Source of the DNA: Chlamydiota bacterium | GTDB lineage: Bacteria > Chlamydiota > Chlamydiia > Chlamydiales > JAAKFQ01 | Direction of reading: 5' to 3' | DNA: 61,315 nucleotides | Assembly (NCBI GenBank): GCA_011064725.1 | Contig: JAAKFQ010000003.1 | Location: forward strand, 1 to 61,315 | Shown here: positions 19,686-38,460 of the stretch, in pieces | How positions within the stretch are numbered: the stretch's first letter is position 1 | Layout: every line of letters begins with the position of its first letter | Position numbers and translations under genes: made by a program | Notes under the pieces: model-generated | What the model was told of the DNA's origin: nothing | Database searches by the model: none | The model's input: the letters and a program-made list of their open reading frames with translations, nothing else

Positions 19686-21374
19686 ATGGCGCCGAAACTC
19701 GTTGCAGAAAGTGGTCTGTTAAAAGGAAAAGTCTATTCTCTTGAAGGACAAGAGGAATACATCCTTGGTCGCGATCCTGATCTTGCTAATATTGTATTAG
19801 AAGATCCCTCTGTTTCACGAAAACATCTATTGATCACCGAAACCGATGAGGGCTTTTTTGCGCAAAACCTAAGCTTAATCAACCCTTCGCTCTTAGACGA
19901 CAAGCCTCTAAAAGAAAAAATGCCGCTGCAAGATGGTCAAGTGCTTCAAATCGGCTCCACACATTTCCGTTACACCACAACGTTTGACGAAACCTTCAAA
20001 GTCAGTGACCAAGAACTCGACACCATCTTTGAAGAAGACCATAAAATGCCTACCTCTTTTGATTTTTCCATGCCTCCTCCCTCCCGTTATTTGCTCAAAG
20101 TCCTCTCAGGTCCCAATGCCGGAGCTGAGTTCTTCATGGAAAAAAACAAGCCCTACAAAATAGGGAAAGATCCCTTAAAATGTGATATCATATTCTATGA
20201 TCGCAGTGTCTCTTCTGAACATGCTAGCATTGAAATCAAAGACGACGGAACCATTTTGATCAAAGATCTAGACTCTCGAAATGGCGTCTTTGTATCTGGA
20301 GTCAATGTAGATGAAGACAATATTGCCTTTCAAGACGTGGTCTCTTTAGGCACCACAACCTTTGTTGTGATCGATACAGAACAAGAACAACCTACCATCA
20401 TCTCGCCTGTTCCTAGAGAAGTTCGTGCAAAAAAAGAAGCTAAACCCATTTCTAGCTGGAAAAAAATATTCGTTCCTACACAAGATCTTGCGATCGCTTC
20501 TGTCTTCACACTCATTGTGCTCATCATCGGCGTCTCCATGCTCATGCTCTTTAAAGGGACACCTAAGGAAATCGCAAAAATCGATCATACTATGGAGATC
20601 AAAAATACGCTTCAAATATATCCTTCTTTAGAATTCACTTATAACAACGTGTCAAAAGATCTGTTTTTAGTGGGTCACTTATCTACAGAAGTGGAAAAAG
20701 ATCAAATGCTCTTCGAGCTTGGCTCTCTTAGCTTTTTAAACAAAATTGATGATAACGTGGTCGTGGACGAACTCATCTGGCAAGAAATGAATAGCATTTT
20801 TGCCAAGAATAGCGATTGGCAATCTGTCACTATGTATTCTCCTGGACCTGGGCAATTTGTCGTTTCTGGATACCTAGACAAAACCGGTGATGTGGCCAAA
20901 TTACAAGATTTTATCAACCTGAACTTCAACTTTGTCGATCAACTCAAGAATGAGGTGTATGCCGATGATATCTTGACACAGGCAATCGATAAAATGCTTG
21001 CCCAAAACGGCTTTTTTAATGTGCAATCTAGTTTTGCAGATGGTGGAGCCACGCTGCAAGGTTCGATTAACTCTAATAATGAAAAGAACTATCTCAATTT
21101 ATTAAACAATTTAAGACACGTTGATGGAATTAGAAAAATTAATGACCTTGTGGTTGTGCAAAAGCAGCAACAAGAAGATGCCATTAGCCTCGGATCACAA
21201 TTTGTTGTGAGTGGAGTATCGAAGCAAGCTAACAAAAATGTCAACGTTATTATTAACGGAAAAATCTACTTTCTTGGAGAGGGTTTTGAAGGGATGACTA
21301 TTGTCAAAATCCTGCAAGACGAAGTGCTCTTAGAAAAAGATGGATTAAAATATAAGATTAATTATACTTTGTAA
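19686..21374 (+). CDS. cdsD: T3SS inner-membrane ring protein SctD (CdsD) with two FHA-like domains
   Basis: FHA-like modules (YILGRD..SRKHLLI..; YKIGKD..SSEHASI..SRNGVFV), one TM (LAIASVFTLIVLIIGVSMLMLF), periplasmic C-terminal domain. Synteny. Confidence 0.8.
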   Translation: MAPKLVAESGLLKGKVYSLEGQEEYILGRDPDLANIVLEDPSVSRKHLLITETDEGFFAQNLSLINPSLLDDKPLKEKMPLQDGQVLQIGSTHFRYTTTFDETFKVSDQELDTIFEEDHKMPTSFDFSMPPPSRYLLKVLSGPNAGAEFFMEKNKPYKIGKDPLKCDIIFYDRSVSSEHASIEIKDDGTILIKDLDSRNGVFVSGVNVDEDNIAFQDVVSLGTTTFVVIDTEQEQPTIISPVPREVRAKKEAKPISSWKKIFVPTQDLAIASVFTLIVLIIGVSMLMLFKGTPKEIAKIDHTMEIKNTLQIYPSLEFTYNNVSKDLFLVGHLSTEVEKDQMLFELGSLSFLNKIDDNVVVDELIWQEMNSIFAKNSDWQSVTMYSPGPGQFVVSGYLDKTGDVAKLQDFINLNFNFVDQLKNEVYADDILTQAIDKMLAQNGFFNVQSSFADGGATLQGSINSNNEKNYLNLLNNLRHVDGIRKINDLVVVQKQQQEDAISLGSQFVVSGVSKQANKNVNVIINGKIYFLGEGFEGMTIVKILQDEVLLEKDGLKYKINYTL

Positions 21375-23102: not shown

Positions 23103-24422
23103 ATGGATTTAGGCGATCAATTTGACAAGTTTCTTACCCAAATGGAAGATGTTCAATTAGCTTCTGTCAATGGACGTATCAATGAAATTGTAGGGATGCT
23201 CATCAAAGCATCCATCCCTCAAGCTAAAATGGGTGAAACCTGCTTGATCAAACGCCCAGGCAAAGAACCGCTTCTTGCCGAAGTTGTCGGGTTTACGAAA
23301 GATGAAGCTTTTTTATCTCCTCTTGGTGAAATGTCTGGCATTGGGCCTTCTTCCGAAGTGATCCCTCTAAGAGTTCCCATGAGCATAAAAGTTGGCGACG
23401 CTCTTTTAGGACGTGTATTAAACGGCCTAGGAGAACCTTTGGACGAAGATACCAAGGGCCCGCTGATTTTGACAGAACGCTACCCTGTCATGAATGCCCC
23501 ACCCAATCCACTTCTAAGAGCTCCTATTGACAAAACCATCTCTGTAGGCATTCGTTGTATCGATGGTGTGCTTACATGTGGACGCGGGCAGCGTATAGGT
23601 ATTTTTGCTGCCGCTGGCGGGGGTAAATCTACGATTTTGGGAATGATAGCACGCCATGCCCAAGCAGACATCAACGTGATTGTGCTTGTTGGAGAGCGGG
23701 GTAGAGAAGTGAGAGAATTTATTGAAAACTCCTTGGGTGAAGAGGGCTTAAAGCGCTCTGTTGTGATTGTTTCTACATCAGACCAGCCTTCCCAATTACG
23801 TCTCAATGCTGCCTACACAGGAACTGCCATTGCCGAATATTTTAGAGCTCGAGGCAGAAACGTCATCTTGATGATGGACTCGATCACGCGTTTTGCAAGA
23901 GCGTTGCGTGAAATTGGCCTCGCTGCTGGAGAGCCTCCTGCAAGAGCCGGTTACACACCTTCTGTCTTTGCTACACTGCCAAAACTATTGGAACGTTCTG
24001 GAAATAGCGATAAGGGATCGATTACTGCTTTTTACACCATTTTGGTCGCAGGAGATGATATGAACGAACCCGTGGCAGATGAAACGCGTTCAATTTTGGA
24101 TGGCCACATTATTCTCTCTTCAGAACTGGCACGTCAATACCACTACCCTGCCATCGATGTGCTTTCTTCCACATCTCGTTTGCTCAATCACATCGTCAGT
24201 AAAGAACATCTCGAATACATTGGAAAAGTGAGAGAAGTGCTTGCGCATTACAAAAAAAATGAACTGCTCATCCGTATTGGTGAATATAAACCAGGATCCG
24301 ATGCAAAAGCCGATTTTGCCATCAAATACATTGAAAAAGTGAACCGATTTTTAAGACAACGTATGGATGAAAAATCGAGTTTAGAAGAAACGGTGCAACA
24401 ACTCAAAGCCCTATTTAGATAA
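23103..24422 (+). CDS. cdsN: T3SS ATPase SctN (CdsN)
   Basis: Walker [13 protein letters not shown], Walker [13 protein letters not shown]. FliI/YscN-like throughout. 439 aa. Confidence 0.95.
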
Positions 24423-24528: not shown

Positions 24529-25035
24529 ATGATTAAAAAATATCCCCTAGAACAACTGATCGCTATTAAACAAAAACGCGTCGAAGATGCTGAAAATGTC
24601 TTTATTGAAAAGAAAAAAATCTACCAAAAAGAACTCGAAAAACTGAAAAAAGAAAAAGAAAAAAAAGATGAAATCAATCGCTATTATGAAGAAAAACTCG
24701 AAGAATTTTACACCTCTTTTGAAGCAGGGACAACAAGCATTAAAATTAAACAAAAAAAGGAGTTTTTGAAAAAGATTTTAGAAGATCTAAAAGTCCAAGA
24801 TCAAAAGCTCAAAGAACAGGCAAAAAAAGTCGATGCGGCAGAAGAAGAAAGGATTGAAGCGAAAAAAATTTTGGACCAGAGACGCATAGACGTTGAAAAA
24901 ATTGAGATCCATCACGTAGAGTGGGAAAAAGAGGAAAAAAAAGAAGAAGAGCGAAAACTTCAAGTCGAACAGGATGAGTTGGGATCTTCAACATATGCGT
25001 ATCGAAAAAAACGCAGAGAAAAAGAGGGGTATTAG
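24529..25035 (+). CDS. cdsO: T3SS stalk protein SctO (CdsO)
   Basis: 168-aa highly charged coiled coil (K/E-rich) immediately after the ATPase gene, as for YscO/CT670. Confidence 0.65.
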   Translation: MIKKYPLEQLIAIKQKRVEDAENVFIEKKKIYQKELEKLKKEKEKKDEINRYYEEKLEEFYTSFEAGTTSIKIKQKKEFLKKILEDLKVQDQKLKEQAKKVDAAEEERIEAKKILDQRRIDVEKIEIHHVEWEKEEKKEEERKLQVEQDELGSSTYAYRKKRREKEGY

Positions 25036-26235
25036 ATGTCTGATGTAGAAAAAATTTCTGATAAATCTAAATTCCCAATGGATAAGCGCGAGGGCGTCAA
25101 AAAAGAGATCGATCCAACAAAATTTCGTCGTTATGTTGACAAGATACAAGAAACAGACCCAGAAGAGCAAAAACGACGCAAACTTCCTGGCGAGCAAGAA
25201 GATAAATATGTGCAAAAGTTTCCTGAAAAAGAGAATCAAAATGAGGGCAAGGGAGCAGGGCTTGGTGCCTCTCAAAACAGCCCTGATTATTCCAAAAAAA
25301 GTCAAGAGCCAACCGGCCCCAAAGATCGCACCTTCGCACCCACAGGAACACAGGAAACTGGAGACACAAAAGAGAGTGGAAAAACCAAAGAATCTGGCGC
25401 AACAAAAGAAGCTGGAAAACCCATGAAAGAAGAAAAAAAAGAGGAAATACTCTCTCCTCTAGAAATCGCCGCTTTAAAAAAAGAAAAACTCGAACGACCC
25501 ACAACAAAAGCTCCTCTAAAACTCACCCCAGAAAAAGAACCTGCTAAACTGGCACCTAAAGTAAAGCTCCCAGAGTTACCTCAAGCACCAAAAGCTGCAC
25601 CCCCACAACCTTCAAAAGTTCAAGCGCCAAAGCCTCCTGTGCAAGCTCCCAAGCAACCTCCTAAAACAACAGCTCCTGCAGCTGCCGCCCCAACAACAAA
25701 AAAAGAAGAAGAAAAAAAGATAGAACCTTCTAAAACAACTGCGCCCCTAACCGGCGCGCCGAAAACTAAGAAAGAAGCTCCAGCTATTCCCATACAAGCA
25801 GTTATTGGACAAGTTCCCATTACACCTTTGGCAAAAGAAGTCGCAGCAACGCCCCAATCAACCTACACTCCAGCTATCCAAAATCCCGAAATTTTACGCC
25901 TTTTTTCCTTCATGGTCACGCAAATCACGATGGTGGTACAACGTGGCGAAACCAATGTGACCATCACATTGGGTGGTCAAGCATTTCAAGATTCTGTCTT
26001 TAATGGTTCACAAATCGTGATCAAAGAATCGCCTCTAGCTCCACGTGAATACAATATTGAACTCTATGGAGCAACAAATGAAGCACAAACGCTTTTTGAT
26101 GCACATGCAGAAGAACTTTTGAGCGTCTTTCAAAACAAACAATACCCTTTCATGGTAAAAAGAATCTCAACATCAAAAACGAAAAAGCATATGATTGAAA
26201 GAAAACCGACAAAAGATCAGGGAGAGTTATCGTGA
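25036..26235 (+). CDS. cdsP: needle-length ruler / substrate-specificity switch SctP (CdsP)
   Basis: 399 aa. Pro/Lys/Ala-rich low-complexity centre (APKAAPPQPSKVQAPKPPVQAPKQPPK). Globular C-terminal domain (TITLGGQAFQDSVFNGSQIVIKES...YNIELYG) in the T3S4 position. Its ATG abuts the cdsO TAG. Confidence 0.6.
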   Translation: MSDVEKISDKSKFPMDKREGVKKEIDPTKFRRYVDKIQETDPEEQKRRKLPGEQEDKYVQKFPEKENQNEGKGAGLGASQNSPDYSKKSQEPTGPKDRTFAPTGTQETGDTKESGKTKESGATKEAGKPMKEEKKEEILSPLEIAALKKEKLERPTTKAPLKLTPEKEPAKLAPKVKLPELPQAPKAAPPQPSKVQAPKPPVQAPKQPPKTTAPAAAAPTTKKEEEKKIEPSKTTAPLTGAPKTKKEAPAIPIQAVIGQVPITPLAKEVAATPQSTYTPAIQNPEILRLFSFMVTQITMVVQRGETNVTITLGGQAFQDSVFNGSQIVIKESPLAPREYNIELYGATNEAQTLFDAHAEELLSVFQNKQYPFMVKRISTSKTKKHMIERKPTKDQGELS

Positions 26236-27407
26236 GTGCATTTGTAGACCATATCGAATCTACGCTTTTAGATCTTGTTGACTTTCCAAAATCTTATGCA
26301 GCTTTAGACTTACCTATTCAAGAGCTCAAAGAAGGTATCAAACAACAGCTCAATTTAGATAATTTAGAACTGCGTTTTAAACGCCCAAAAATCGAGAAAA
26401 ATACTGACTTTACCACCTCTTGTTTTGTGATTGAGTTAAAAACGGCTCTCAATGGCAATCTCTTTTTTTGTCTTCCCAATGAACATTTAAAAACACTTGT
26501 CGAAATTCTCTCTAAAAAAAAGATCGACATTCTTGATCCCGATCTTGCCAAAAGCATCTTTTACACATTGACTTTAGAAAGCTTAAATATCATGCATACC
26601 ACACAATTTTTAGAAGATCTCAATTTCAAACTTGTCACCCACGCTTCTACAATCATACCTCCTGTTTTCAATTATGAAATCACAGCAACCATCAATAAAC
26701 AAGAGTTGCATTTTTATCTCATCTATTCCAAAGAATTTGCTTTGAGTTTTGATCGTTTTATTGAACCCAATCTTCAATCCAAAATCCCCAAAGAATTTGA
26801 AAATACCATTGACTGTACCCTTAACTTACAAGTCGGATCTGTGGATTTATACTTAAATGAATTCAAAAGCATAAAAAAAGGAGACTTTGTTGTCCTTGAT
26901 CGTTGTACGATCGATCCAGAAACAACGCACGGCACGCTCAGCTTTATGTTAGATAAGCGCCCTCTTTTTGTGGGCAAGTTAAAAGAAGATAAAGTCAAAA
27001 TATTGGATATGCTTGAAATACAAGGAGAGATGATGAACGAGGACAAAATAGAGCCAGAAGAAGAAAATTGGGTCGAAAACCCAGAGATTCCAGAACAAGC
27101 TACCTCAGAAACGATGGAAAATGAAATCGAAGAAGCAATAGGAACGGCGGGTGAAAAAAAAGTAGAAAAATCCAAAGAAGCACTGATTAAATCCGAAGAT
27201 ATTCCCCTCACTATGAGTGTCGAAGTCGGCCGCATCAACATGAGCGTAAAAGAATTGTTAAATCTCACCCCAGACCAAACGCTCGATTTAAAAATCGATG
27301 TGACAAAGGGTGTGGATTGTTTGATCGGAAACAAAAGAGTTGCTAAAGGAGAACTTGTTAAGTTAGGCGATTTTTTAGGCGTTCGCATTACCGAGATCAG
27401 ACGCTAA
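26232..27407 (+). CDS. cdsQ: T3SS cytoplasmic sorting-platform protein SctQ (CdsQ)
   Basis: C-terminal SpoA/FliN-like domain (LTMSVEVGRINMSVKELLNL...GELVKLGDFLGVRITEI). The GTG start overlaps the cdsP stop (GTGA). Confidence 0.8.
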   Translation: MSAFVDHIESTLLDLVDFPKSYAALDLPIQELKEGIKQQLNLDNLELRFKRPKIEKNTDFTTSCFVIELKTALNGNLFFCLPNEHLKTLVEILSKKKIDILDPDLAKSIFYTLTLESLNIMHTTQFLEDLNFKLVTHASTIIPPVFNYEITATINKQELHFYLIYSKEFALSFDRFIEPNLQSKIPKEFENTIDCTLNLQVGSVDLYLNEFKSIKKGDFVVLDRCTIDPETTHGTLSFMLDKRPLFVGKLKEDKVKILDMLEIQGEMMNEDKIEPEEENWVENPEIPEQATSETMENEIEEAIGTAGEKKVEKSKEALIKSEDIPLTMSVEVGRINMSVKELLNLTPDQTLDLKIDVTKGVDCLIGNKRVAKGELVKLGDFLGVRITEIRR

Positions 27408-27586: not shown

Positions 27587-27656
27587 ATCAAAAAGATACG
27601 CAAAAAAATGACTGTTTGAAAGACAAATTTTACAAATCTTGGTATCAATAGGATTA

Positions 27657-29189
27657 ATGGAAGATTTTTTTTTCAAACAAAAAACCCTTGCCTCTGATTT
27701 TAATCAGCCTATTTTAGAGCCTGTAAATATTCCCGATCTCATTGGCCCTTATAAGATCGATTCTTTTTTGAAAAAAGGCGGCATGAGTGAGTTGTTTTTA
27801 GCCTCAGATCCTGAAAGCAAACTCCCCCTTTGCATCAAAGTTTTGCCCAAACATTTTACCAGCAATGCTTCTTTGATCAAGCGTTTTTTAAAAGAGGCAA
27901 AAATCATTCAAATGACAGACCATCCCAACATTATCAAACTTTTTGGACAGGGAGAAGATCCCCTTGGGCTTTATATTGCCATGGAATTTATCCAAGGACT
28001 CAATTTAAAACAGCTGCTTTTCCAAAATAGTCTATCGCAGCAAAAATCTTTGAGCCTTGTGCTCAATATTAGCTATGCTCTGATGCATCTTCATGGACAT
28101 GGCGTGGTCCATAGAGATCTAAAACCTGAAAACATTTTGATCGATCATAAAGGCATTCCCAAAATTATCGACTTTGGAATTGCTCAGGTCAATCCCAATG
28201 CCTTTACCCAAGAAAATCTAAAAATTGCAGGCACACCTGCGTACATGAGCCCCGAACAAAAAGAAGATCCTTCCAAAGCTTCTTTTCAATCTGACATCTA
28301 TTCTCTTGGTGTGATTCTATATGAACTGATTTTGCAAAAACAGTGCTATGGTATGATCCAGCTCGAACTCATCCCAGAGCGGCTTAGAAAAATTTTACAA
28401 AAAGCCTTGCAACCAGATCTAAAAAAACGCTATTTGGATATTGTCGATTTTGTTCAAGATCTAAGCACATACATCCACAGCGGAAACATCGAAACACTCT
28501 CCTCAAGCGATTTCGAAAAACACGTCAAAGAAGAACTGGTTTCAACAAAAACACAACTGTGCCACCTGCCACCTCTCGATATTAATCTTTTTGAATTTGC
28601 AAAAACGCATTTAGAAGGTCCCTATGTCTATGATTTCCAAATTCTCGAAAATGGCGATCTACTCCTTGTGCAATTTGGACTTAAAGAATCGATTTCAAGC
28701 TATCTTCATCTGTCCAATATTTTGGGTGCATTTAAATCTAAAAAATATAAAACATTGCAAGAATCCGTCGAACATTTAGATCAATTTATTAAAGAACAAA
28801 ATATTCCCTCGCCCATCGCGCTATTTTTACAAATCCACCCACAAACAGATCAACTCCATTTCCTTTCCTTTGGTCATGTGTATTTGTTTCATGAAAGTAG
28901 AGAACCTGGATCTGCAAATTACATTTCTCATCGCAATCCTAATTTAGGAGAACTTAAAAGCTACAATTTACCCACAAAAACCTTTCGATTTTGGAAAGAA
29001 GATTGTTTAACATGGTTTTTATTTTCGCATTTAGAAGATTCCATGGAACAATTTTTAACACAATGCTTAAATGATTCTCATGAAAATGCTTCAGAAAACC
29101 GCCTTTTTTTACTGCTCGATCAAATCAAAATAAAAAGCCACAACGCCTTTGTTCTTCCTTTCATTGCAACGCTATTAAAGAAAGAATAA
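27657..29189 (+). CDS. pkn5: Ser/Thr protein kinase (Pkn5-like), T3SS-linked
   Basis: VHRDLKPENIL, IIDFGIA, GTPAYMSPE, Lys in LCIKVL. ATG 27657 has AGGA 4 nt upstream (track TTG 27639). ~230-aa C-terminal domain of unknown type. Confidence 0.85.
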   Translation: MEDFFFKQKTLASDFNQPILEPVNIPDLIGPYKIDSFLKKGGMSELFLASDPESKLPLCIKVLPKHFTSNASLIKRFLKEAKIIQMTDHPNIIKLFGQGEDPLGLYIAMEFIQGLNLKQLLFQNSLSQQKSLSLVLNISYALMHLHGHGVVHRDLKPENILIDHKGIPKIIDFGIAQVNPNAFTQENLKIAGTPAYMSPEQKEDPSKASFQSDIYSLGVILYELILQKQCYGMIQLELIPERLRKILQKALQPDLKKRYLDIVDFVQDLSTYIHSGNIETLSSSDFEKHVKEELVSTKTQLCHLPPLDINLFEFAKTHLEGPYVYDFQILENGDLLLVQFGLKESISSYLHLSNILGAFKSKKYKTLQESVEHLDQFIKEQNIPSPIALFLQIHPQTDQLHFLSFGHVYLFHESREPGSANYISHRNPNLGELKSYNLPTKTFRFWKEDCLTWFLFSHLEDSMEQFLTQCLNDSHENASENRLFLLLDQIKIKSHNAFVLPFIATLLKKE

Positions 29190-29353
29190 CACACATTCAA
29201 GAGTTATTTTTTACATCTCTTTTTTTAAAGTCCTCTTACTAGTGCATAAAGTTCATTTTTGCTATTGGTATAATTTGCATAATCATTTAGAATAAAGCAA
29301 GTTCGCGTGAAGTAAAAAAGGGGTCGGTCGGCAAGATCCGATTTTAGTTTTTG

Positions 29354-32300
29354 ATGAAACAAAAAAACGCATTGCATTGGCTAAAAAAGAGTGTTTTTTT
29401 TCTCGCATTGTGCTGCTTTCTTAACATTAGTTTTGCAGACACAACGGCCGATGATACAACACCTCAGACAAGCACCTCTGACACAGAGGTTGTACAAACA
29501 ACGCCATCAACTCAAGAAGATGCCACGCCCCCCCCATCTACAGACACAAACAAAACAGATCTTTCACAAGAGGTGATTGATCCTTCAAATGTAGCCCAAC
29601 CGGAACAAAAGCAAAGCAATCCATGGTGGGATTTTATTTTAAAAGGGCGCCCTCAAAAATCCAAACAAATTTCTCCAGAACCACCTAAAACCGCTCCTGT
29701 TCAAGAAAAAGATCCCTGGACACAAAATGAAAATGGTTATGAAATTAATTTCAACAATGTCTCGATTGTCGAAGTGATAAAAACCATCTCAAAGATGACA
29801 AAACTCAATTTTGTGTTCGATGAAAGTCAACTCACTTTCAATGTTACCATTGTTTCTTCTGGCCCCACCTCTTTGGCCAACTTGATTTCCAGTTTCGTTC
29901 AAGTGCTTCAAGTCAATGGGTACACGCTTTCAGAAGAAGGCAATGCGTTTGTGATCCATTCTGTCGGTGAAGTGAATAGTCTTGCCAAATTTGTCTTGCC
30001 AAATGAACAAATCCCTTTTGAAACAGCTTTGATCACAAAAGCCTTTTCTTTAGAAAATCTTGCCCCTTCTTATATTCTAGAAACTGTCAAACCCCTGCTT
30101 TCACAATCTGCTTTAATTGAAGCAAGCGATTCCACACGCCATTTGATCATCACAGACACTCCAGGAAATATCGCAGCTTTGCAAAGGCTTGTGACATTTT
30201 TGGACTCTCCTAATGAATCGGCGCAAATTGGTGTCTACAAAGTTTCTAATTTTTATGCCTCTTCTTTGACCACGCTTGCCGACAAAATTTTACAAGCATT
30301 ACCAGACAAAACAGATGTATTATTGATTCCACAAGACACCAGTGAAAACATCATTATTGTCGCAACGCCTTATCTTGTGAAAAAGACACAGAGTCTTTTA
30401 AAACAGCTCGATCAAGTATCCATTGCTTCTGGCGAAAAACAGCAAAAACAAGTGAATTTTGAAAATATTTTCCTCTACACACCACAATTTCGTTCTTATG
30501 AAGCTGTGTTAAGTGCTTTGAAACTCATCAATACCAATCTTGAAGAAATGGGATCTTCCTATTCTGATTTAAAAGACGTGGTTGAGTCTGCATATTGGAT
30601 ACAAGATATTTCTGCATTTTTATTCGTAGGTGATCCTCAAAACATTTCAAAACTCCAAGCCATTTTAAAAGACATTGATTCGGCGTCCACAGACGCTTAC
30701 CCAAGCTCTACTGTGCTTTTCACTTATGACCCTCAATACATCACTACAGAAGATTTGACAACAGCCCTACAAAACGTGGCGACTAATCTAAAAGCACTCA
30801 AAAATGCAGCACCTGCATTGATTCATATGCTCGAATCGATCCATATCATTCCTAAAACAGAATCTGTGATCTTTGTTGGAGAAAAAATAGCCCTTGCACA
30901 ATTGCAAGAAATCCTTAAATCCGTCGATATTGATATTGCGAACGTACCGATTGTCAAATCGCCTAACTTTAATTTTCTTGTCTATGATTTAAAATTCATC
31001 ACTTTTAATGATCTTAACCAATCTTTGCAAGACATCACCCAAATCATTAGCAAAACTGATGATCCTGACAAAACCCTGATTGATACCATCAACTCTATTC
31101 ATTATATCCAGGACACCAATTCAGTGATTTTCACAGGGTCAAAACGTTCACTGCAAAACGTCGAAAGTTTGCTTGAAAAATTTGATACAGAAGATCAACA
31201 ACAGCGCGCACATCAGCAATTTTTCATCTACAAACCCCAAAATCGCAAACCTAAAGATATCCAAGATAGTCTTCAAGAAATGACCAGTTATCTCAAAACT
31301 CAAGAGATGATCGATCCACAAATGCTCGACATGATTGAAAGTGTCAAACTCATCCAAGATACAGGCTCTTTGCTTTTCGTCGGCAGCCAACAAACCTACA
31401 CTCAAATAGAAACCCTTTTGCAAAATATTGATATACCCGCTGGACAAATCACAGTGAGCGCTTTGGGCACTTCTAATTATTTAATTTATTCTATTACAGC
31501 AGCCCAAGAAGTAAAATTGATGGATGCTTTAAAAGAGTTGGCAAAAAAATTGCAGTCAACCCCTACACCAGATAATGAACTCATCTTTGCGCTGCAACAT
31601 CCTGAATACATCTCCCAAACACATTCATTGATTTTTGTTGGCGACGATAACACGCTTAAAGAAATTTCCGACATCATGTCAAAGCTCGATATCTCTCCAG
31701 CAGGTCAATCGATCACAAATTTCGTTCTCTACGTTCCTCAATATTTAGAACCCCAAGAAGTGATTGATGATTTAAATGTGATGGCTTCTCAACTTTCCGA
31801 TTCAGGACTCAATGATCAATCGCTCATTTTAACACTTTCTTCTGGTGTTTATTCTAAAAAAACAGGTGCCATTATTTTCACAGGCACAGAAGACTCACTT
31901 GGAAAAACACAAAACATTTTAAAAACATTGGATGTTCCCGACTCTTCTGTAGGCCAACACCTCTTTATTTATAAACCACAAAATCTCTCTCCAAAAGAAT
32001 TACTTGCGTCTTTGCAAGCTGCCGTCAAACAGCTCGATGGAAAAAGTGAATACCAATTAAATACTGCCATTAAAAACGGGAAAATTATTGCAGGATCTCT
32101 TTCTTTCAAAGGCTCTGAAGCTTCTGTTCATCACATTCAAGAGATGATAAAAACATTGGACACAATTACGCCCGATGCAAATCAACAACAGATTTTCATC
32201 TATACACCTCAATACATGTCCATCACTCAGTTGAAAAACAACTTAGAAAACCTTGTAGATAAATTAGAACAAGATCCCTCTTCATCGAGTTTGGTTAGCA

Positions 32301-34369
32301 TCATAAAAGAAAGCTACGTAGAAAAAAAATCTAATGCTGTTGTTTTCAAGGGACCTGCTCAGATTTTAGACCAAATCAAAACTGTTTTACAAGAATTGGA
32401 TCAACCTTCTACAAAAGAAGAAGCCATTTTTGTCTATACTTTAAAAAACGTCTCCATCAAAGATGCGACTTACTACTTAAGCACTGTTGAAGATCATTTG
32501 AAAGAAGCACCAAACCCAGATCATGCGCTCATAGACGTCATTGAATCTGCAAAATCCATTCCTCAAAGCAACTCACTCATGTTTACAGGAAAAGCTCTAG
32601 CCATTACTCAACTTCAAGAGTTGCTTGCAAAATATGACAGTCCAGACAATGCCCCTTCTCCAAAACAATCACAGTCTGCATTTATCATGTACACACCAAA
32701 ATACATCTCAGGAAGTACCCTCGTTTCTAATTTGAAAAGTGCAGGTAAAGAACTTCAAGATTCTGGCCTTGCCAATCCTTATTTGATCAAATCCTTACAA
32801 ACAGCACGTTACAACCATGACTCCAATTCAGTCATAGTCACAGGAAATGATTCCACACTCAAAGACGTCAAAGATCTTATCTCCCATTTCGATACCACAA
32901 AAGCTGCTCCCTCTACTACTGGCAGCAAAAGCAACTACCTTGTCTACAAACCAAAATTTGTCACAGGTCCCACGTTAGAGAATTGGATGGTAGATTCGAC
33001 AAAAAATCTAGAAAAATCCGGGCTCAATGATCCCAAACTTATCGATGCTCTAAAATCTATGCACTATAATAGCGACACAGGCACTCTCACTTTTTCTGGA
33101 GACCAACAATCGCTTGCTAAGGTGCAAGATTTGATTAATGACTATGACAATGAATCCAATGCGCAAAATGGAGAATCTGGGCTTCCCTCTTCAGAAGGCC
33201 TGACATTTTTGGTCTACAAATTACAATATCATCAGGGCGATGAAATCATTGATGCTCTATCTAGCATTAGTACCGATTTACGCAAATATCAAACAGGCAC
33301 AGAAAATGATGTGGTTCTCAATGCGATTTCTTCTGTTCAATGGCTCAAAATCACAAATTCCCTTTTAATTTCTGGCTCTTCAACAACCCTACAAAAAATA
33401 AAAAGTCTTATTCAAAAACTGGACATTCCTTTGCAACAAATTTTCTTAGAAGTGTTGATCATTAGAACAAGCGCTCTCGATATTCTAAATTTTGGTTTGC
33501 GCTGGGGAACTGCCGGAACCATTTTAAAAAAGTTTTCTACCGCTTTCGGCCTTTTTCCTGATACCGGTAATTTCACTAACTTAAACAAATTTGGTTCTAA
33601 CATTTTAAACGCAGGGGGGACTACTACTCCTGCACCTACAACAGTGGGAGCTAATGGTTTTGATTTAGGTGTTATTGGAGATATTATTTTCCATAAAGGC
33701 AAATCCTTTTTAACACTAGGAGCTTTGGTAGCAGCGCTTCAAAAAGATTCAAATGATACCAGTATTCAAACACATAACACTGTCGCGCAAGATAATCAGC
33801 AAGCGCACATCTTTTCCGGATTTAACCGTCCCTTTGATCTGTCGAGTTTTACCCAACAAATTTCCACTGGTGGAACCAATTCTACTGCAACTAATGAGTA
33901 CCGCGACGTAGGATTTGATCTACAAATCACACCCATTATTGGAGGAGATGATATTATCACACTGATCATTGATCAAAAGTTTACAGAATCGTCAGCAGAA
34001 CAGCTCAACAATGTACAAAGTAATACGGTTTCAAAACAGGTCACCACCACACGTGTACGCGCGCCTAACAACCATTTTATCGCCCTTTCTGGCGCTCTTA
34101 CAGATACACGCTCTCGCGCCAAAACAGGTATTCCTTGTTTAGGTGGACTTCCTGTTGTCGGCGCTTTATTTAGTGATGTGACAAGAACCAATCAAAAAGA
34201 TAATATCATCATCTTTATCCGCCCACAGATTATCACTTCTGACCAACAAGTTGTCAATATGACAGAAAGACAAGAAGATCGTTTCAGAGAAAACGCAGGA
34301 AGTTTAGAACTTCAATATGACGTCGATGACGCAATCAATATGATGGTGCCCATAGATGAGATTGAATAA
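29354..34369 (+). CDS. cdsC: T3SS outer-membrane secretin SctC (CdsC), giant form with ~13 tandem secretin-N modules
   Basis: Signal peptide MKQKNALHWLKKSVFFLALCCFLNISFA. N0-like YEINFNNVSIVEVIKTISK. Repeated modules span 30224-33424. C-terminal secretin domain GIPCLGGLPVVGALFSDV...IIIFIRPQII. TGgTATAAT at 29266-29274 is a possible promoter. Confidence 0.9.
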   Translation: MKQKNALHWLKKSVFFLALCCFLNISFADTTADDTTPQTSTSDTEVVQTTPSTQEDATPPPSTDTNKTDLSQEVIDPSNVAQPEQKQSNPWWDFILKGRPQKSKQISPEPPKTAPVQEKDPWTQNENGYEINFNNVSIVEVIKTISKMTKLNFVFDESQLTFNVTIVSSGPTSLANLISSFVQVLQVNGYTLSEEGNAFVIHSVGEVNSLAKFVLPNEQIPFETALITKAFSLENLAPSYILETVKPLLSQSALIEASDSTRHLIITDTPGNIAALQRLVTFLDSPNESAQIGVYKVSNFYASSLTTLADKILQALPDKTDVLLIPQDTSENIIIVATPYLVKKTQSLLKQLDQVSIASGEKQQKQVNFENIFLYTPQFRSYEAVLSALKLINTNLEEMGSSYSDLKDVVESAYWIQDISAFLFVGDPQNISKLQAILKDIDSASTDAYPSSTVLFTYDPQYITTEDLTTALQNVATNLKALKNAAPALIHMLESIHIIPKTESVIFVGEKIALAQLQEILKSVDIDIANVPIVKSPNFNFLVYDLKFITFNDLNQSLQDITQIISKTDDPDKTLIDTINSIHYIQDTNSVIFTGSKRSLQNVESLLEKFDTEDQQQRAHQQFFIYKPQNRKPKDIQDSLQEMTSYLKTQEMIDPQMLDMIESVKLIQDTGSLLFVGSQQTYTQIETLLQNIDIPAGQITVSALGTSNYLIYSITAAQEVKLMDALKELAKKLQSTPTPDNELIFALQHPEYISQTHSLIFVGDDNTLKEISDIMSKLDISPAGQSITNFVLYVPQYLEPQEVIDDLNVMASQLSDSGLNDQSLILTLSSGVYSKKTGAIIFTGTEDSLGKTQNILKTLDVPDSSVGQHLFIYKPQNLSPKELLASLQAAVKQLDGKSEYQLNTAIKNGKIIAGSLSFKGSEASVHHIQEMIKTLDTITPDANQQQIFIYTPQYMSITQLKNNLENLVDKLEQDPSSSSLVSIIKESYVEKKSNAVVFKGPAQILDQIKTVLQELDQPSTKEEAIFVYTLKNVSIKDATYYLSTVEDHLKEAPNPDHALIDVIESAKSIPQSNSLMFTGKALAITQLQELLAKYDSPDNAPSPKQSQSAFIMYTPKYISGSTLVSNLKSAGKELQDSGLANPYLIKSLQTARYNHDSNSVIVTGNDSTLKDVKDLISHFDTTKAAPSTTGSKSNYLVYKPKFVTGPTLENWMVDSTKNLEKSGLNDPKLIDALKSMHYNSDTGTLTFSGDQQSLAKVQDLINDYDNESNAQNGESGLPSSEGLTFLVYKLQYHQGDEIIDALSSISTDLRKYQTGTENDVVLNAISSVQWLKITNSLLISGSSTTLQKIKSLIQKLDIPLQQIFLEVLIIRTSALDILNFGLRWGTAGTILKKFSTAFGLFPDTGNFTNLNKFGSNILNAGGTTTPAPTTVGANGFDLGVIGDIIFHKGKSFLTLGALVAALQKDSNDTSIQTHNTVAQDNQQAHIFSGFNRPFDLSSFTQQISTGGTNSTATNEYRDVGFDLQITPIIGGDDIITLIIDQKFTESSAEQLNNVQSNTVSKQVTTTRVRAPNNHFIALSGALTDTRSRAKTGIPCLGGLPVVGALFSDVTRTNQKDNIIIFIRPQIITSDQQVVNMTERQEDRFRENAGSLELQYDVDDAINMMVPIDEIE

Positions 34370-35306
34370 CTATTTTTTACTTCTTTGCTGTCTTTTTTTA
34401 TGCAGCTGTTACAAGCCTAAAAAAGAGACCGACATGATGGCCTATTCGATTTCAGAAACGCAACTGCGCTCACTCGGCACTTGCTTTACTCCATTTACAG
34501 AAGAAGAAAAACAAAAAAGTTTTGCAAAGGAGTATTTGATTGCTATCAATTTTGCAAAAGAGCTCGATTACTATCGCGCTGTGACAACTTTTAAACGTTC
34601 CAAGGTTCTTGCCGAAATCGAAGAACCCGATCGCGTCCATCAAGCAGAATATGCCATTCTACTCTCCTATTTTTTAGCCAATCGTTTTTACGATGTCGCT
34701 CGCGAATTTGAACGTTCTAATTTACGCAAAGAAATGCAACCCGACTTTCCCGCTTTCCATGATCTTGTCATCATTTTGCATGAAAGCTATTTAAAAATTG
34801 GTAATGAAGAAAAGGCAAAAGAAGCACTTTCACTACTAGACAAACAAGATGAAGTGACAACAGATCGCATCGAAGTGTATGATGTGTTAGATAAGGGACG
34901 CTTTAAAGAGCTCTACACATACACGCAAAACAAACCCTACGGCGACGATCTGCAATTTTTTATCGATCAATACCAATCTAAAGCTAAATCGATGCGAACA
35001 GCAGCGCTGTTATCGATGGTCATTCCAGGCTCTGGCTATTTGTATGCTGGCCAAACGCGCTCTTTTGTAACCAGTTTTTTACTTAACACTTTATTCATTG
35101 TCGCAGCAGTGCATCTTTTTAACAAAAATCATATTGCCGCCGGCGTGGTTGTCTTGGGTTTTGAAATGGGTTGGTACTTTGGTGCCATCTACGGCTCTGC
35201 ACGCGCAGTCAAATTCTACAATGAACGCCTGTATGGAAAACAAGCCAGATGGCTTGCAGAAGAATATAAATTTTACCCAGCTTTAAATCTAAAATGCGCA
35301 TTTTAA
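34356..35306 (+). CDS. lipoprotein with helical-repeat (TPR-like) N-domain and C-terminal membrane domain
   Basis: Lipobox-like LFLCS|C. Helical repeat region. C-terminal hydrophobic segments (LLSMVIPGSGYLYAG..; LLNTLFIVAAVHLF; GVVVLGFEMGWYFGAIYG). The start overlaps the cdsC end by 14 nt. Confidence 0.65.
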   Translation: MRLNNYFLLLCCLFLCSCYKPKKETDMMAYSISETQLRSLGTCFTPFTEEEKQKSFAKEYLIAINFAKELDYYRAVTTFKRSKVLAEIEEPDRVHQAEYAILLSYFLANRFYDVAREFERSNLRKEMQPDFPAFHDLVIILHESYLKIGNEEKAKEALSLLDKQDEVTTDRIEVYDVLDKGRFKELYTYTQNKPYGDDLQFFIDQYQSKAKSMRTAALLSMVIPGSGYLYAGQTRSFVTSFLLNTLFIVAAVHLFNKNHIAAGVVVLGFEMGWYFGAIYGSARAVKFYNERLYGKQARWLAEEYKFYPALNLKCAF

Positions 35307-35728
35307 CCAACACTGTGCGAAAAATCTTAAGCGTAGGAAGACTGCAAGGAATAATTTGCGGCCTATTGCTCCTCTGCTGCTGTAGTTGGCAAAAAACCAC
35401 CTGGGAAGAACCTTGGGGCAAAGACAAAGAACTTGTGCATTTTGATCGCACAGAAAAAAAGACACAAAAAACATCCTACAATCCGCTATACCACGCCGGG
35501 ATTTTGATGATTCAATTCCACCAAACGTTCATCTCCCCCATGAACCAAGACAGAAGCAATTTCCGTCCTACAAGCTCGCAATATGCCATGGATGCGATCA
35601 AAAGACATGGTTTTGTACAAGGCTTTATCATGGGATGTGATCGCTTAATGCGCGAAAATGATGATGAGTGGGTCTACAATCAAAAAGAGATCAATGGCAT
35701 CTTGTGGAAATATGACCCTGTCGAATAA
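35294..35728 (+). CDS. YidD-like protein (membrane-protein insertion efficiency factor family) lacking the conserved cysteines
   Basis: FHQTFISPMNQDRSNFRPTSSQYAMDAIKRHGFVQGFIMGCDRLMRE parallels the YidD consensus (..Y...iSp....CRF.PTCS.Y...Ai..hG...G......Ri.rC.P), but with Ser where the CRF/PTCS Cys residues are expected. N-terminal hydrophobic/Cys-rich leader. 13-nt overlap with the upstream gene. Confidence 0.6.
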   Translation: MRILTNTVRKILSVGRLQGIICGLLLLCCCSWQKTTWEEPWGKDKELVHFDRTEKKTQKTSYNPLYHAGILMIQFHQTFISPMNQDRSNFRPTSSQYAMDAIKRHGFVQGFIMGCDRLMRENDDEWVYNQKEINGILWKYDPVE

Positions 35729-37521: not shown

Positions 37522-38460
37522 ATGAACAAAGTTCCCAAAAAATCCCCCGATTCAGCCAAAGACACACAGTTTGAACATCTCTACCAAGTCTCTGAGAGCG
37601 AAGTATACGATTTTGTCCATCAACACCATCTATTTAAACAACTCGATCAATTTCCTGAGATCGCTAAAACATACTATACTTACACAATCAATAACGCCAT
37701 CAAACAGATGCATAAAAATAAAAAGCTCACAACACTCTTTCATGCAGTGACAAAACCTCAAAGCACAGAAGAAAGCGAACTTAAAAAACTCTTGCCTTCC
37801 AAAACTGTTGCAAAATATTTGACCCGATTAAACCTCACTTTCTTAAAAAAAGAAGAGATCGAAGCACTCATAGAACATCTTCCAGAAAATTTAGAATTTG
37901 TCTCAGAAATCAATCTAGCTCATACTTATGTGCCCCCAAAAACTCTGCAAATGCTTCTCAAAAAATGCCCAAACCTCAAAAATTTACTCGTGACAGATAA
38001 TCAAACAGATCACACCTATTCTTTAACAGCAGAAGATTTCATCTACATCCTAAAACTCTTTCCTCATATTGAAAAATTAGAATTGCACAACAAGTATTTC
38101 GACAAACTCAAAGATTTAGATACACATGGGATTAAATTGGACGATTTGAGTTTTTTTTATCTATCTAATGCACCTATTACAAAACAAGATTTTGTACAAT
38201 TTCTCACCATCTGCCCAAATCTTAAAGAAGCAGAGTTTAATCGCTGTGAAAATTTAAAAGATTTAGATGAAAAGACCTTTCCTCAATTAGAAAACCTAGA
38301 AATCCTCCATCTCGTAGGAGATGCCAATCTTAAAATCCAAGATCTTGTTATTATCACTCAAAAATGCCCCCATCTCAAAAAAATCTATCTGACCAAAAAT
38401 CCCTCCTTATCTGCCCAAGATATCCCCACAGATATCAAGAAAAAGATCATCTGGAGATAA
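37522..38460 (+). CDS. leucine-rich-repeat protein (cysteine-containing, eukaryote-like LRR subtype); effector candidate
   Basis: Repeats such as CPNLKNLLVTDN, FPHIEKLELHNKYF, CPNLKEAEFNRCENLKD, LENLEILHLVGDANLKIQDL, CPHLKKIYLTKNPSL. No signal peptide. Confidence 0.75.
   Translation: MNKVPKKSPDSAKDTQFEHLYQVSESEVYDFVHQHHLFKQLDQFPEIAKTYYTYTINNAIKQMHKNKKLTTLFHAVTKPQSTEESELKKLLPSKTVAKYLTRLNLTFLKKEEIEALIEHLPENLEFVSEINLAHTYVPPKTLQMLLKKCPNLKNLLVTDNQTDHTYSLTAEDFIYILKLFPHIEKLELHNKYFDKLKDLDTHGIKLDDLSFFYLSNAPITKQDFVQFLTICPNLKEAEFNRCENLKDLDEKTFPQLENLEILHLVGDANLKIQDLVIITQKCPHLKKIYLTKNPSLSAQDIPTDIKKKIIWR

Follow-up and report, generated by a model that had tools for sequence, protein, structure and literature searches.

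Secretins form the outer-membrane ring of the injectisome, the type III secretion system (T3SS). Canonical T3SS secretins carry the N domains N0, N1 and N3, and MxiD and YscC are 566–607 amino acids (aa) long; Chlamydia CdsC, with 921 aa, has already been called the largest T3SS secretin (PMC4682100). Here I describe a secretin of the CdsC/SctC type, encoded in a 61,315-nucleotide stretch of DNA (hereafter the window) from a Chlamydiota bacterium (GCA_011064725.1, contig JAAKFQ010000003.1, positions 1–61,315 of the forward strand). It is 1672 aa long and possesses 14 Secretin_N domains after N0, where two to three are usual. This array is a real, ancient and phylum-wide elaboration of the T3SS secretin, and not a peculiarity of the window. 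On balance I favour the view that the domains stack as a neck of ∼60 nm, whose length has varied by module duplication and loss, with the needle following.

Among the closest described proteins is CdsC from C. trachomatis (CT674), whose gene has the same position after cdsQ and pkn5. Both proteins have a pore similar to those of type II secretion systems (T2SS) and of phage pIV, an N0 domain preceded by a hydrophilic stretch, and a role as the outer-membrane ring of the injectisome (PMC4682100, PMC3459982). Relatives with the CdsC layout have N0, two Pfam Secretin_N stretches, one long module and extra length before N0, whereas the window secretin has its 14 Secretin_N domains and only ∼95 aa before N0. 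By sequence and fold, its nearest matches are GspD, the secretin of the T2SS (in Vibrio, E. coli and, as XcpQ, Pseudomonas), and filamentous-phage pIV. However, GspD possesses only N0–N3 and works with Gsp partners, while the window secretin lies in a T3SS cluster and has at least 10 extra N domains; in a structural model, its long modules also differ from the GspD N domains by one additional short helix, placed after α1 and before β2. InvG, YscC and MxiD (TIGR02516) fill the same injectisome slot and contact SctD through their N-terminal domains, but belong to another secretin clade, and InvG is only a weaker Foldseek match to the window modules.

A further likeness is found in the Thermus thermophilus PilQ, among the largest secretin systems characterised, which also has extra βαββα N domains; its six N rings stack in a 35-nm complex spanning an unusually wide periplasm (PMC5745081). 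PilQ nevertheless differs in being a 757-aa, six-ring protein of the type IV pilus and of DNA uptake, while the window secretin belongs to a T3SS, has 15 inferred tiers (up to ∼25 in relatives), and varies in copy number between species.

The open reading frame (ORF) of the window secretin is intact across 5 kb. Starting at a TTG codon it encodes 1672 aa; starting at the next codon, an ATG at 29354, it encodes 1671 aa, and this is the gene call of the identical database protein P0001. Its features, all on the plus strand and in window coordinates, are as follows.

29351..34369, plus strand: secretin gene (CdsC/SctC-type T3SS secretin), from the ORF list, with Pfam N0, Secretin_N and Secretin matches
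29351..29437, plus strand: putative Sec-type signal peptide, residues 1–29 (...FLNISFA/D), read off the translation
29438..29722, plus strand: low-complexity stretch of 95 aa rich in Thr, Pro, Asp and Gln, residues 30–124, between signal peptide and N0, from composition
29744..29944, plus strand: N0 domain, residues 132–198 (Pfam PF21305, 46.2 bits)
29969..30220, plus strand: short canonical Secretin_N domain, N1-like, residues 207–290 (Pfam Secretin_N match at 211–288, E 1.2e-6, 29.1 bits)
30218..30424, plus strand: second short Secretin_N-like domain, N2-like, residues 290–358 (weak and partial Pfam match, E 0.13; partial module-profile match at 332–355)
30461..33436, plus strand: array of 12 long Secretin_N modules, residues 371–1362 (module profile, 64–89 bits each)
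30461–30688, 30710–30940, 30968–31198, 31214–31444, 31472–31702 and 31715–31945, plus strand: long modules 1–6
31955–32170, 32186–32413, 32420–32650, 32675–32905, 32930–33160 and 33200–33436, plus strand: long modules 7–12
33437..34366, plus strand: pore (secretin) domain and C-terminal tail, residues 1363–1672 (Pfam PF00263 at 1462–1628)

From its N-terminus, the protein thus consists of a putative signal peptide, the low-complexity stretch, N0, a pair of short N domains, the twelve long modules and the pore. The pore match scores 107.8 bits against a cut-off of 27.5, and the whole protein scores 197.9 bits for Secretin_N (PF03958) in 7 significant stretches. By its pore, N0 and Secretin_N domains the protein is a member of the secretin superfamily, which supplies the outer-membrane pores of T2SS, T3SS, type IV pili and filamentous phage, as homo-oligomers of 12–16 subunits that form gated channels. 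Residues 124–288 align with the N0–N1 crystal structures of GspD/XcpQ (E 2e-8, PDB sequence search). In most multi-module (class-A) relatives N0 begins at residues 40–80, so that the stretch before N0 is longer in the window protein. This stretch is reminiscent of the reported 250-aa hydrophilic N-domain of the Chlamydiaceae CdsC.

The long modules were delineated with a profile iterated from one module on the secretin itself. It yields 12 full-length modules (residues 376–1359) with a period of ∼80–85 aa, and the weak partial match in the second short domain. Similarly, a phmmer query with a single module recovers 10 other modules at i-E<0.01, against 0 matches in 200 shuffles of the region. 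With the two short domains, this gives 14 Secretin_N-type domains, of which 10 match Pfam Secretin_N at E<0.01 when scanned singly (best 1e-9). The original prediction, made from the sequence alone, had placed 13 modules at 30224–33424 (residues 292–1358), after a normal N0 and an "N1" and before a normal pore. The twelve long and two short domains bear this out, the first of the 13 modules being the N2-like short domain at 290–358, which is kept in the family alignment. The module signature that it had described (h-x-Y-x-P-Q, then T-N-S-h-h-F-x-G, closing on L..h-D) is likewise visible in the module alignment, and its assignment to the secretin-N fold agrees with the Pfam matches and with the modeling described below.

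I used AlphaFold2 to model modules 3–5 (residues 540–784), which include one module missed by Pfam, from an alignment of 24 three-module segments. The model has a mean predicted local distance difference test (pLDDT) value of 89.6 and a predicted template-modelling score (pTM) of 0.65, with pLDDT of 73–82 in the linkers, which are 9–20 residues long across the array. Each module has a β-α-(short α)-β-β-α topology, that is the ring-building βαββα motif with one additional short helix. A Foldseek search of the PDB with this model returned GspD N-domains (Vibrio, Aeromonas, Pseudomonas XcpQ N0–N2) as top matches, with probability 1.0, followed by the Salmonella InvG, and by KH-like folds lower in the list. 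The global TM-scores are low because the relative orientation of the domains differs from that in GspD.

Sequence identity between the modules is limited, at 16–36% (mean 26%) for the protein and 44% for the codon-aligned DNA. Tandem Repeats Finder detects no DNA-level repeat in the array; the sole repeat it reports in the gene, of 28 nt, falls in the low-complexity part at the 5' end. The same 12 long modules are present in P0002, an ortholog with 66% identity that comes from an unrelated JGI metagenome. The expansion of the array in the window gene is therefore old, in keeping with the divergence noted in the original prediction.

I next compared this gene with its relatives, scanning one genome per species. 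Relatives are encoded in 270 species-level genomes. Taxon labels were taken for the best 80 of these 270 loci, most of which are from Chlamydiota (Parachlamydiales, Rhabdochlamydiaceae, Simkaniaceae, Anoxychlamydiales), the rest being labelled Verrucomicrobia or unclassified. Among 70 complete genes, 3 have 6 long modules, 9 have 7, 18 have 8, 20 have 9, 7 have 10, 7 have 11, 3 have 12, 2 have 14 and 1 has 21, with a mode of 8–9, and a representative library of metagenome proteins extends this to 22 long modules and 2368 aa. The library also contains another layout, in which there is a single long module and N0 is preceded by an extension of variable length; its members of 925–931 aa (P0125, P0121) show the published Chlamydiaceae layout of N0, two Pfam Secretin_N stretches and pore. 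The multi-module architecture is thus the rule outside the Chlamydiaceae, and the twelve long modules of the window secretin lie at the high end of a phylum-wide architecture of variable copy number.

The comparison also suggests how this number changes. Only the last, pore-proximal module has a positional ortholog throughout (89/89 relatives); the penultimate one does so in part, and the internal modules have no stable orthology. In P0016, P0022, P0093, P0063 and L048, adjacent internal modules are 88–97% identical (against a maximum of 36% in the window gene), which indicates very recent tandem duplication. It follows for these five that short-read assemblies are at risk of collapsing or expanding the copy number. 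Taken together, the alignments show an array that gains its internal modules by tandem duplication and keeps the module next to the pore fixed.

A long Secretin_N array was also found in a non-chlamydial protein, the 1823-aa secretin P0011 (L087:1-15472; GCA_964446835.1, contig CAYUQT010000028.1), with 14 Pfam Secretin_N stretches. It resembles the window secretin in this respect, but represents an independent case: its modules are short and canonical, it has no Pfam N0, and there are no T3SS genes next to it. The window module profile gives 4 matches in P0011, of which 2 are near-full, all at no more than 12 bits, and none is full-length at the 55-position cut-off. On the same strand, the gene before P0011 encodes a protein of 5437 aa, truncated where the locus ends, for which Pfam lists Secretin_N and otherwise only faint matches. 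Tad/VWA-type genes are found nearby. P0011 and its neighbour indicate that giant ring-domain arrays also exist outside Chlamydiota.

The window secretin lies at the end of a T3SS cluster. The order upstream of it is a CesT-like chaperone, SctD/CdsD, DUF5398, CdsG, SctN, SctO, a 399-aa ORF, SctQ, a Pkn5-like kinase and then the secretin, and the main components are the following.

19686..21374, plus strand: SctD/CdsD inner-membrane ring protein, 562 aa (TIGR02500, 166.9 bits; Pfam CdsD_PD1, PD2 and C domains)
23103..24422, plus strand: SctN ATPase (Pfam ATP-synt_ab and T3SS_ATPase_C)
24529..25035, plus strand: SctO (Pfam YscO-like, 111 bits)
25036..26235, plus strand: putative SctP/CdsP-like needle-length ruler, 399 aa, between SctO and SctQ (ruler layout; Foldseek)
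26232..27407, plus strand: SctQ (TIGR02551, 103.8 bits, above the cut-off; Pfam FliMN_C)
27639..29189, plus strand: Pkn5-like Ser/Thr kinase, the last gene before the secretin (Pfam Pkinase, 147 bits)

This matches the order cdsD…cdsN-O-P-Q-pkn5-cdsC, which is the chlamydial arrangement. Upstream flanks of 3 kb or more are available for 52 related loci; in 43 of these SctQ is found upstream of the secretin on the same strand, and in 40 the Pkn5-like kinase. Closing the canonical chlamydial cluster, from SctD through SctN, SctO, SctP and SctQ to Pkn5, identifies the window gene as encoding, in all likelihood, the injectisome secretin (CdsC/SctC), as had originally been predicted. Its pore and N0–N1 domains appear to be of T2SS/phage-pIV ancestry.

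What such an array would do is suggested by the solved secretins. By homology to these, every module would oligomerise into a ring, and the ∼15 tiers would stack as a continuous periplasmic tube. At ∼4 nm per tier, a value derived from the six-ring Thermus PilQ, this tube would be ∼60 nm long, or ∼70 nm with the pore, and would join the outer membrane to an SctD/SctJ inner-membrane ring of normal size. SctP would lengthen to keep rod and needle long enough to pass beyond the extended tube, and neck and needle lengths would co-evolve. If each added module adds a ring, rod and needle must lengthen in turn, and the length of SctP should scale with the number of modules.

The ruler domain of SctP sets the length of the needle (PMC6140923). 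In the window, sequence searches with the 399-aa ORF between SctO and SctQ found no named relative, no Pfam or NCBIfam family and no PDB match. Its layout consists of a short conserved N-terminus, a spacer rich in Pro, Lys, Ala and Thr, and a conserved, T3S4-like C-terminal domain of ∼110 aa. The AlphaFold model of this domain has a core pLDDT of ∼90 and an α-β-β-β-α-β topology, and its top two Foldseek matches among 350,542 PDB chains are both of the ruler switch domains that have been solved, FliK-C (2RRL, probability 0.96) and the PscP switch domain (5CUK, probability 0.98, TM 0.62, 3.3 Å). From its gene position, its disordered spacer and this predicted C-terminal fold, I refer to the protein as SctP-like.

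The length of the SctP-like protein does increase with the number of long modules, with a slope of 24.7±4.2 aa per module (n=32 loci; r=0.73, p=2e-6, Spearman 0.54), and the trend stays significant within arrays of up to 12 modules. This regression includes P0066 (L084); in P0019, P0028, P0016, P0020 and P0155, which are among the largest secretins, sctP lies outside the available context. Phylogenetically independent contrasts, on a neighbor-joining tree of the pore domain, give a slope of 21.7 (r=0.65, p=5e-5), with p=0.002 when the 21-module locus is left out and p=0.04 without the three largest arrays. A proxy for length that does not depend on the start codon gives a slope of 19±6 (p=0.003). 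The variation in length lies N-terminal of the conserved C-terminal domain. Five controls, namely SctQ, SctO, SctN, the Pkn5-like kinase and a 316-aa ORF downstream of the secretin, show no trend with module number (|rho| at most 0.16).

Journet, in 2003, is said to have put the ruler at 1.9 Å per residue. With this figure, the 20–25 residues gained per module amount to ∼4–5 nm, against the ∼4 nm per ring from Thermus PilQ. The agreement between ruler increment and ring height is rough, and is of the kind that a neck of stacked rings would predict.

One locus with 17 modules, L084, has an additional 245-aa gene (L084:6363-7100) between its SctP-like gene and SctQ. The product weakly resembles the window SctP-like protein in its C-terminal part (E 0.014), and the gene could be a piece of the ruler that was duplicated or split off.

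The stacked neck was one of two readings offered in the original prediction, and the co-variation of SctP length with module number favours it; I regard it as probable. Nonetheless, several points weigh against it. I know of no report of injectisome basal bodies of such length. With an SctD that is not unusually large (562 aa), the secretin alone would have to span the extra distance. That every module forms a ring is itself inferred from homology, and four of the 14 domains match the Pfam model poorly: two have only partial or weak matches (E 0.04 and 0.13), and the modules at 371–446 and 708–784 have none when scanned alone, with scores of 78–81 bits on the shared module profile. For SctP, the Foldseek E-values of 2RRL and 5CUK are weak (0.015–0.04), the correlation with module number is moderate, owes much to three loci of high copy number and shows a single outlier (L052), and the contrasts are based on a rough tree and on ORF-derived lengths. 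Finally, a ∼70-nm basal body needs a periplasm more than twice as wide as at the C. trachomatis T3SS pole, where 28.6 nm was measured (PMC4336559).

A broader proposal, which I put forward tentatively and consider somewhat less likely than not, extends the stacked neck to environmental chlamydiae in general: their basal bodies could be 2–4 times the longest described (∼45 to >100 nm), with a length set digitally by the number of rings (6–22 long modules) and with a co-evolved SctP.

The main rival to the stacked neck is that the array is a flexible, extensible tether, with its modules strung like beads or with rings formed by only a part of them. Such a tether would let the basal body adjust to changes in the width of the periplasm, from one developmental form to another or when the host is contacted. 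The contraction from 34 to 29 nm reported in C. trachomatis fits such a tether, as does the statement that linkers govern flexibility (PMC4682100). The linkers of 9–20 residues, their lower pLDDT, and the low global TM-scores, which indicate an inter-domain geometry unlike that of GspD, are also consistent with it. However, a slack tether needs no growth of the ruler by approximately one ring height per module, the pTM of the three-module model suggests some defined packing between modules, and N domains form rings in all solved secretins (PMC5745081). I consider this explanation unlikely, though a serious one.

The second reading of the original prediction was that the array binds the envelope instead. 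In this case it would be a scaffold outside of the conduit, attached to peptidoglycan, to the cysteine-rich outer-membrane complex or to neighbouring injectisomes. Nothing direct speaks for it; a stacked neck would be surprisingly long, and environmental chlamydiae are reported to possess peptidoglycan sacculi. The modules, however, have ring-building Secretin_N folds, Pfam and Foldseek detected no AMIN, LysM, SPOR or OmpA-like domain, and the co-variation with SctP points to a role in axial length, which favours a very long stacked neck over an array binding peptidoglycan or the outer membrane. A scaffold of this kind is thus very improbable.

It is scarcely credible, in turn, that the protein is a T2SS secretin (GspD), or another non-T3SS secretin, that merely lies beside T3SS genes. 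Taken at face value, the similarity searches would suggest it. The NCBIfam GspD model TIGR02517 scores 382.3 bits over 6 stretches of the whole protein, above its cut-off of 351.35, while the SctC model TIGR02516 reaches 91.4 bits, below its cut-off of 238.45; for the C-terminal part alone, the values are 176 bits for GspD and 67.5 for SctC. PDB sequence matches are to GspD and PilQ only (best for the pore: 5wln, E 5e-35), with no InvG/YscC-type chain at E 1e-5, the filamentous-phage pIV PHROG scores 284 bits, and JGI names the relatives "GspD/PulD". However, the GspD cut-off is passed because the repeated N domains inflate the score: without the array, the N-terminal (110.4 bits) and C-terminal (176.4 bits) ends add up to 287 bits, which is below 351. 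Missing the TIGR02516 cut-off means that the protein is not a member of the InvG/YscC sequence family, though it would have the same role. Furthermore, the chlamydial T3SS secretin falls within the T2SS/pIV clade in the tree of Abby & Rocha (PMC3459982), and SctC and GspD are separate chlamydial ortholog groups (Heinz et al., PMC2811131). Throughout the phylum the secretin gene keeps its synteny with sctQ and pkn5, and the 61-kb window holds no gsp genes, the neighbours of the secretin being T3SS genes. A plain T2SS GspD was rejected on the grounds of synteny, the repeat-inflated score and the absence of gsp genes from the window.

Lastly, although arrays of repeats are easily mis-assembled and adjacent modules are nearly identical in some relatives, an assembly artefact or a decaying pseudogene can be dismissed for the window gene, as its modules are divergent, it has no DNA repeat in the array, its frame is intact and P0002 has the same 12 modules.

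In T3SS structural biology, the neck of the secretin is taken as a fixed N0-N1-N3 assembly, with the 921-aa Chlamydia CdsC as an outlier. A clade-wide SctC with 8–24 ring domains, a copy number that changes by duplication and a ruler that scales with it would make the length of the basal body an evolvable, modular trait. It would also provide a natural experiment on how needle-length rulers measure, and on how secretin N-rings stack and transmit gating. If the broader proposal above is correct, the species of environmental chlamydiae would constitute a natural length series of a secretion machine, and the envelope or periplasm at their injectisomes would be far wider than now assumed. The size of the array and the scaling of the ruler point to injectisomes much longer than any described. 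I found no description of such a secretin array in the open-access literature, a scope that leaves out most subscription journals, so this absence is not proof. At a practical level, since repeats inflate the GspD score, annotation pipelines are likely to mislabel T3SS secretins as T2SS GspD, as for the window protein and its relatives P0002, P0014 and P0028.

Two further genes follow the secretin in most relatives.

34356..35306, plus strand: conserved lipoprotein-like ORF of 316 aa, with a 14-nt overlap at the secretin stop (no family match)
35294–35728: YidD, after the 316-aa ORF

The 316-aa ORF is found directly 3' of the secretin in 75 of 80 loci, and YidD comes next in 73 of these 80. 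The 316-aa protein has a signal of the lipoprotein type and a conserved N-terminus (...[S/G]-C-(Y/Q)-R-V-P-D-x-I-E-P), a middle part similar to tetratricopeptide repeats, and hydrophobic helices at residues ∼236–280; no Pfam or NCBIfam family matches it. It may be a pilotin-like partner of the C-terminal tail of the secretin.

Further downstream, just after the Der GTPase, the window encodes a leucine-rich-repeat protein (37522–38460, plus strand) whose Pfam repeat matches are eukaryote-like. Effector candidates are common in environmental chlamydiae, and this protein could be one of them.

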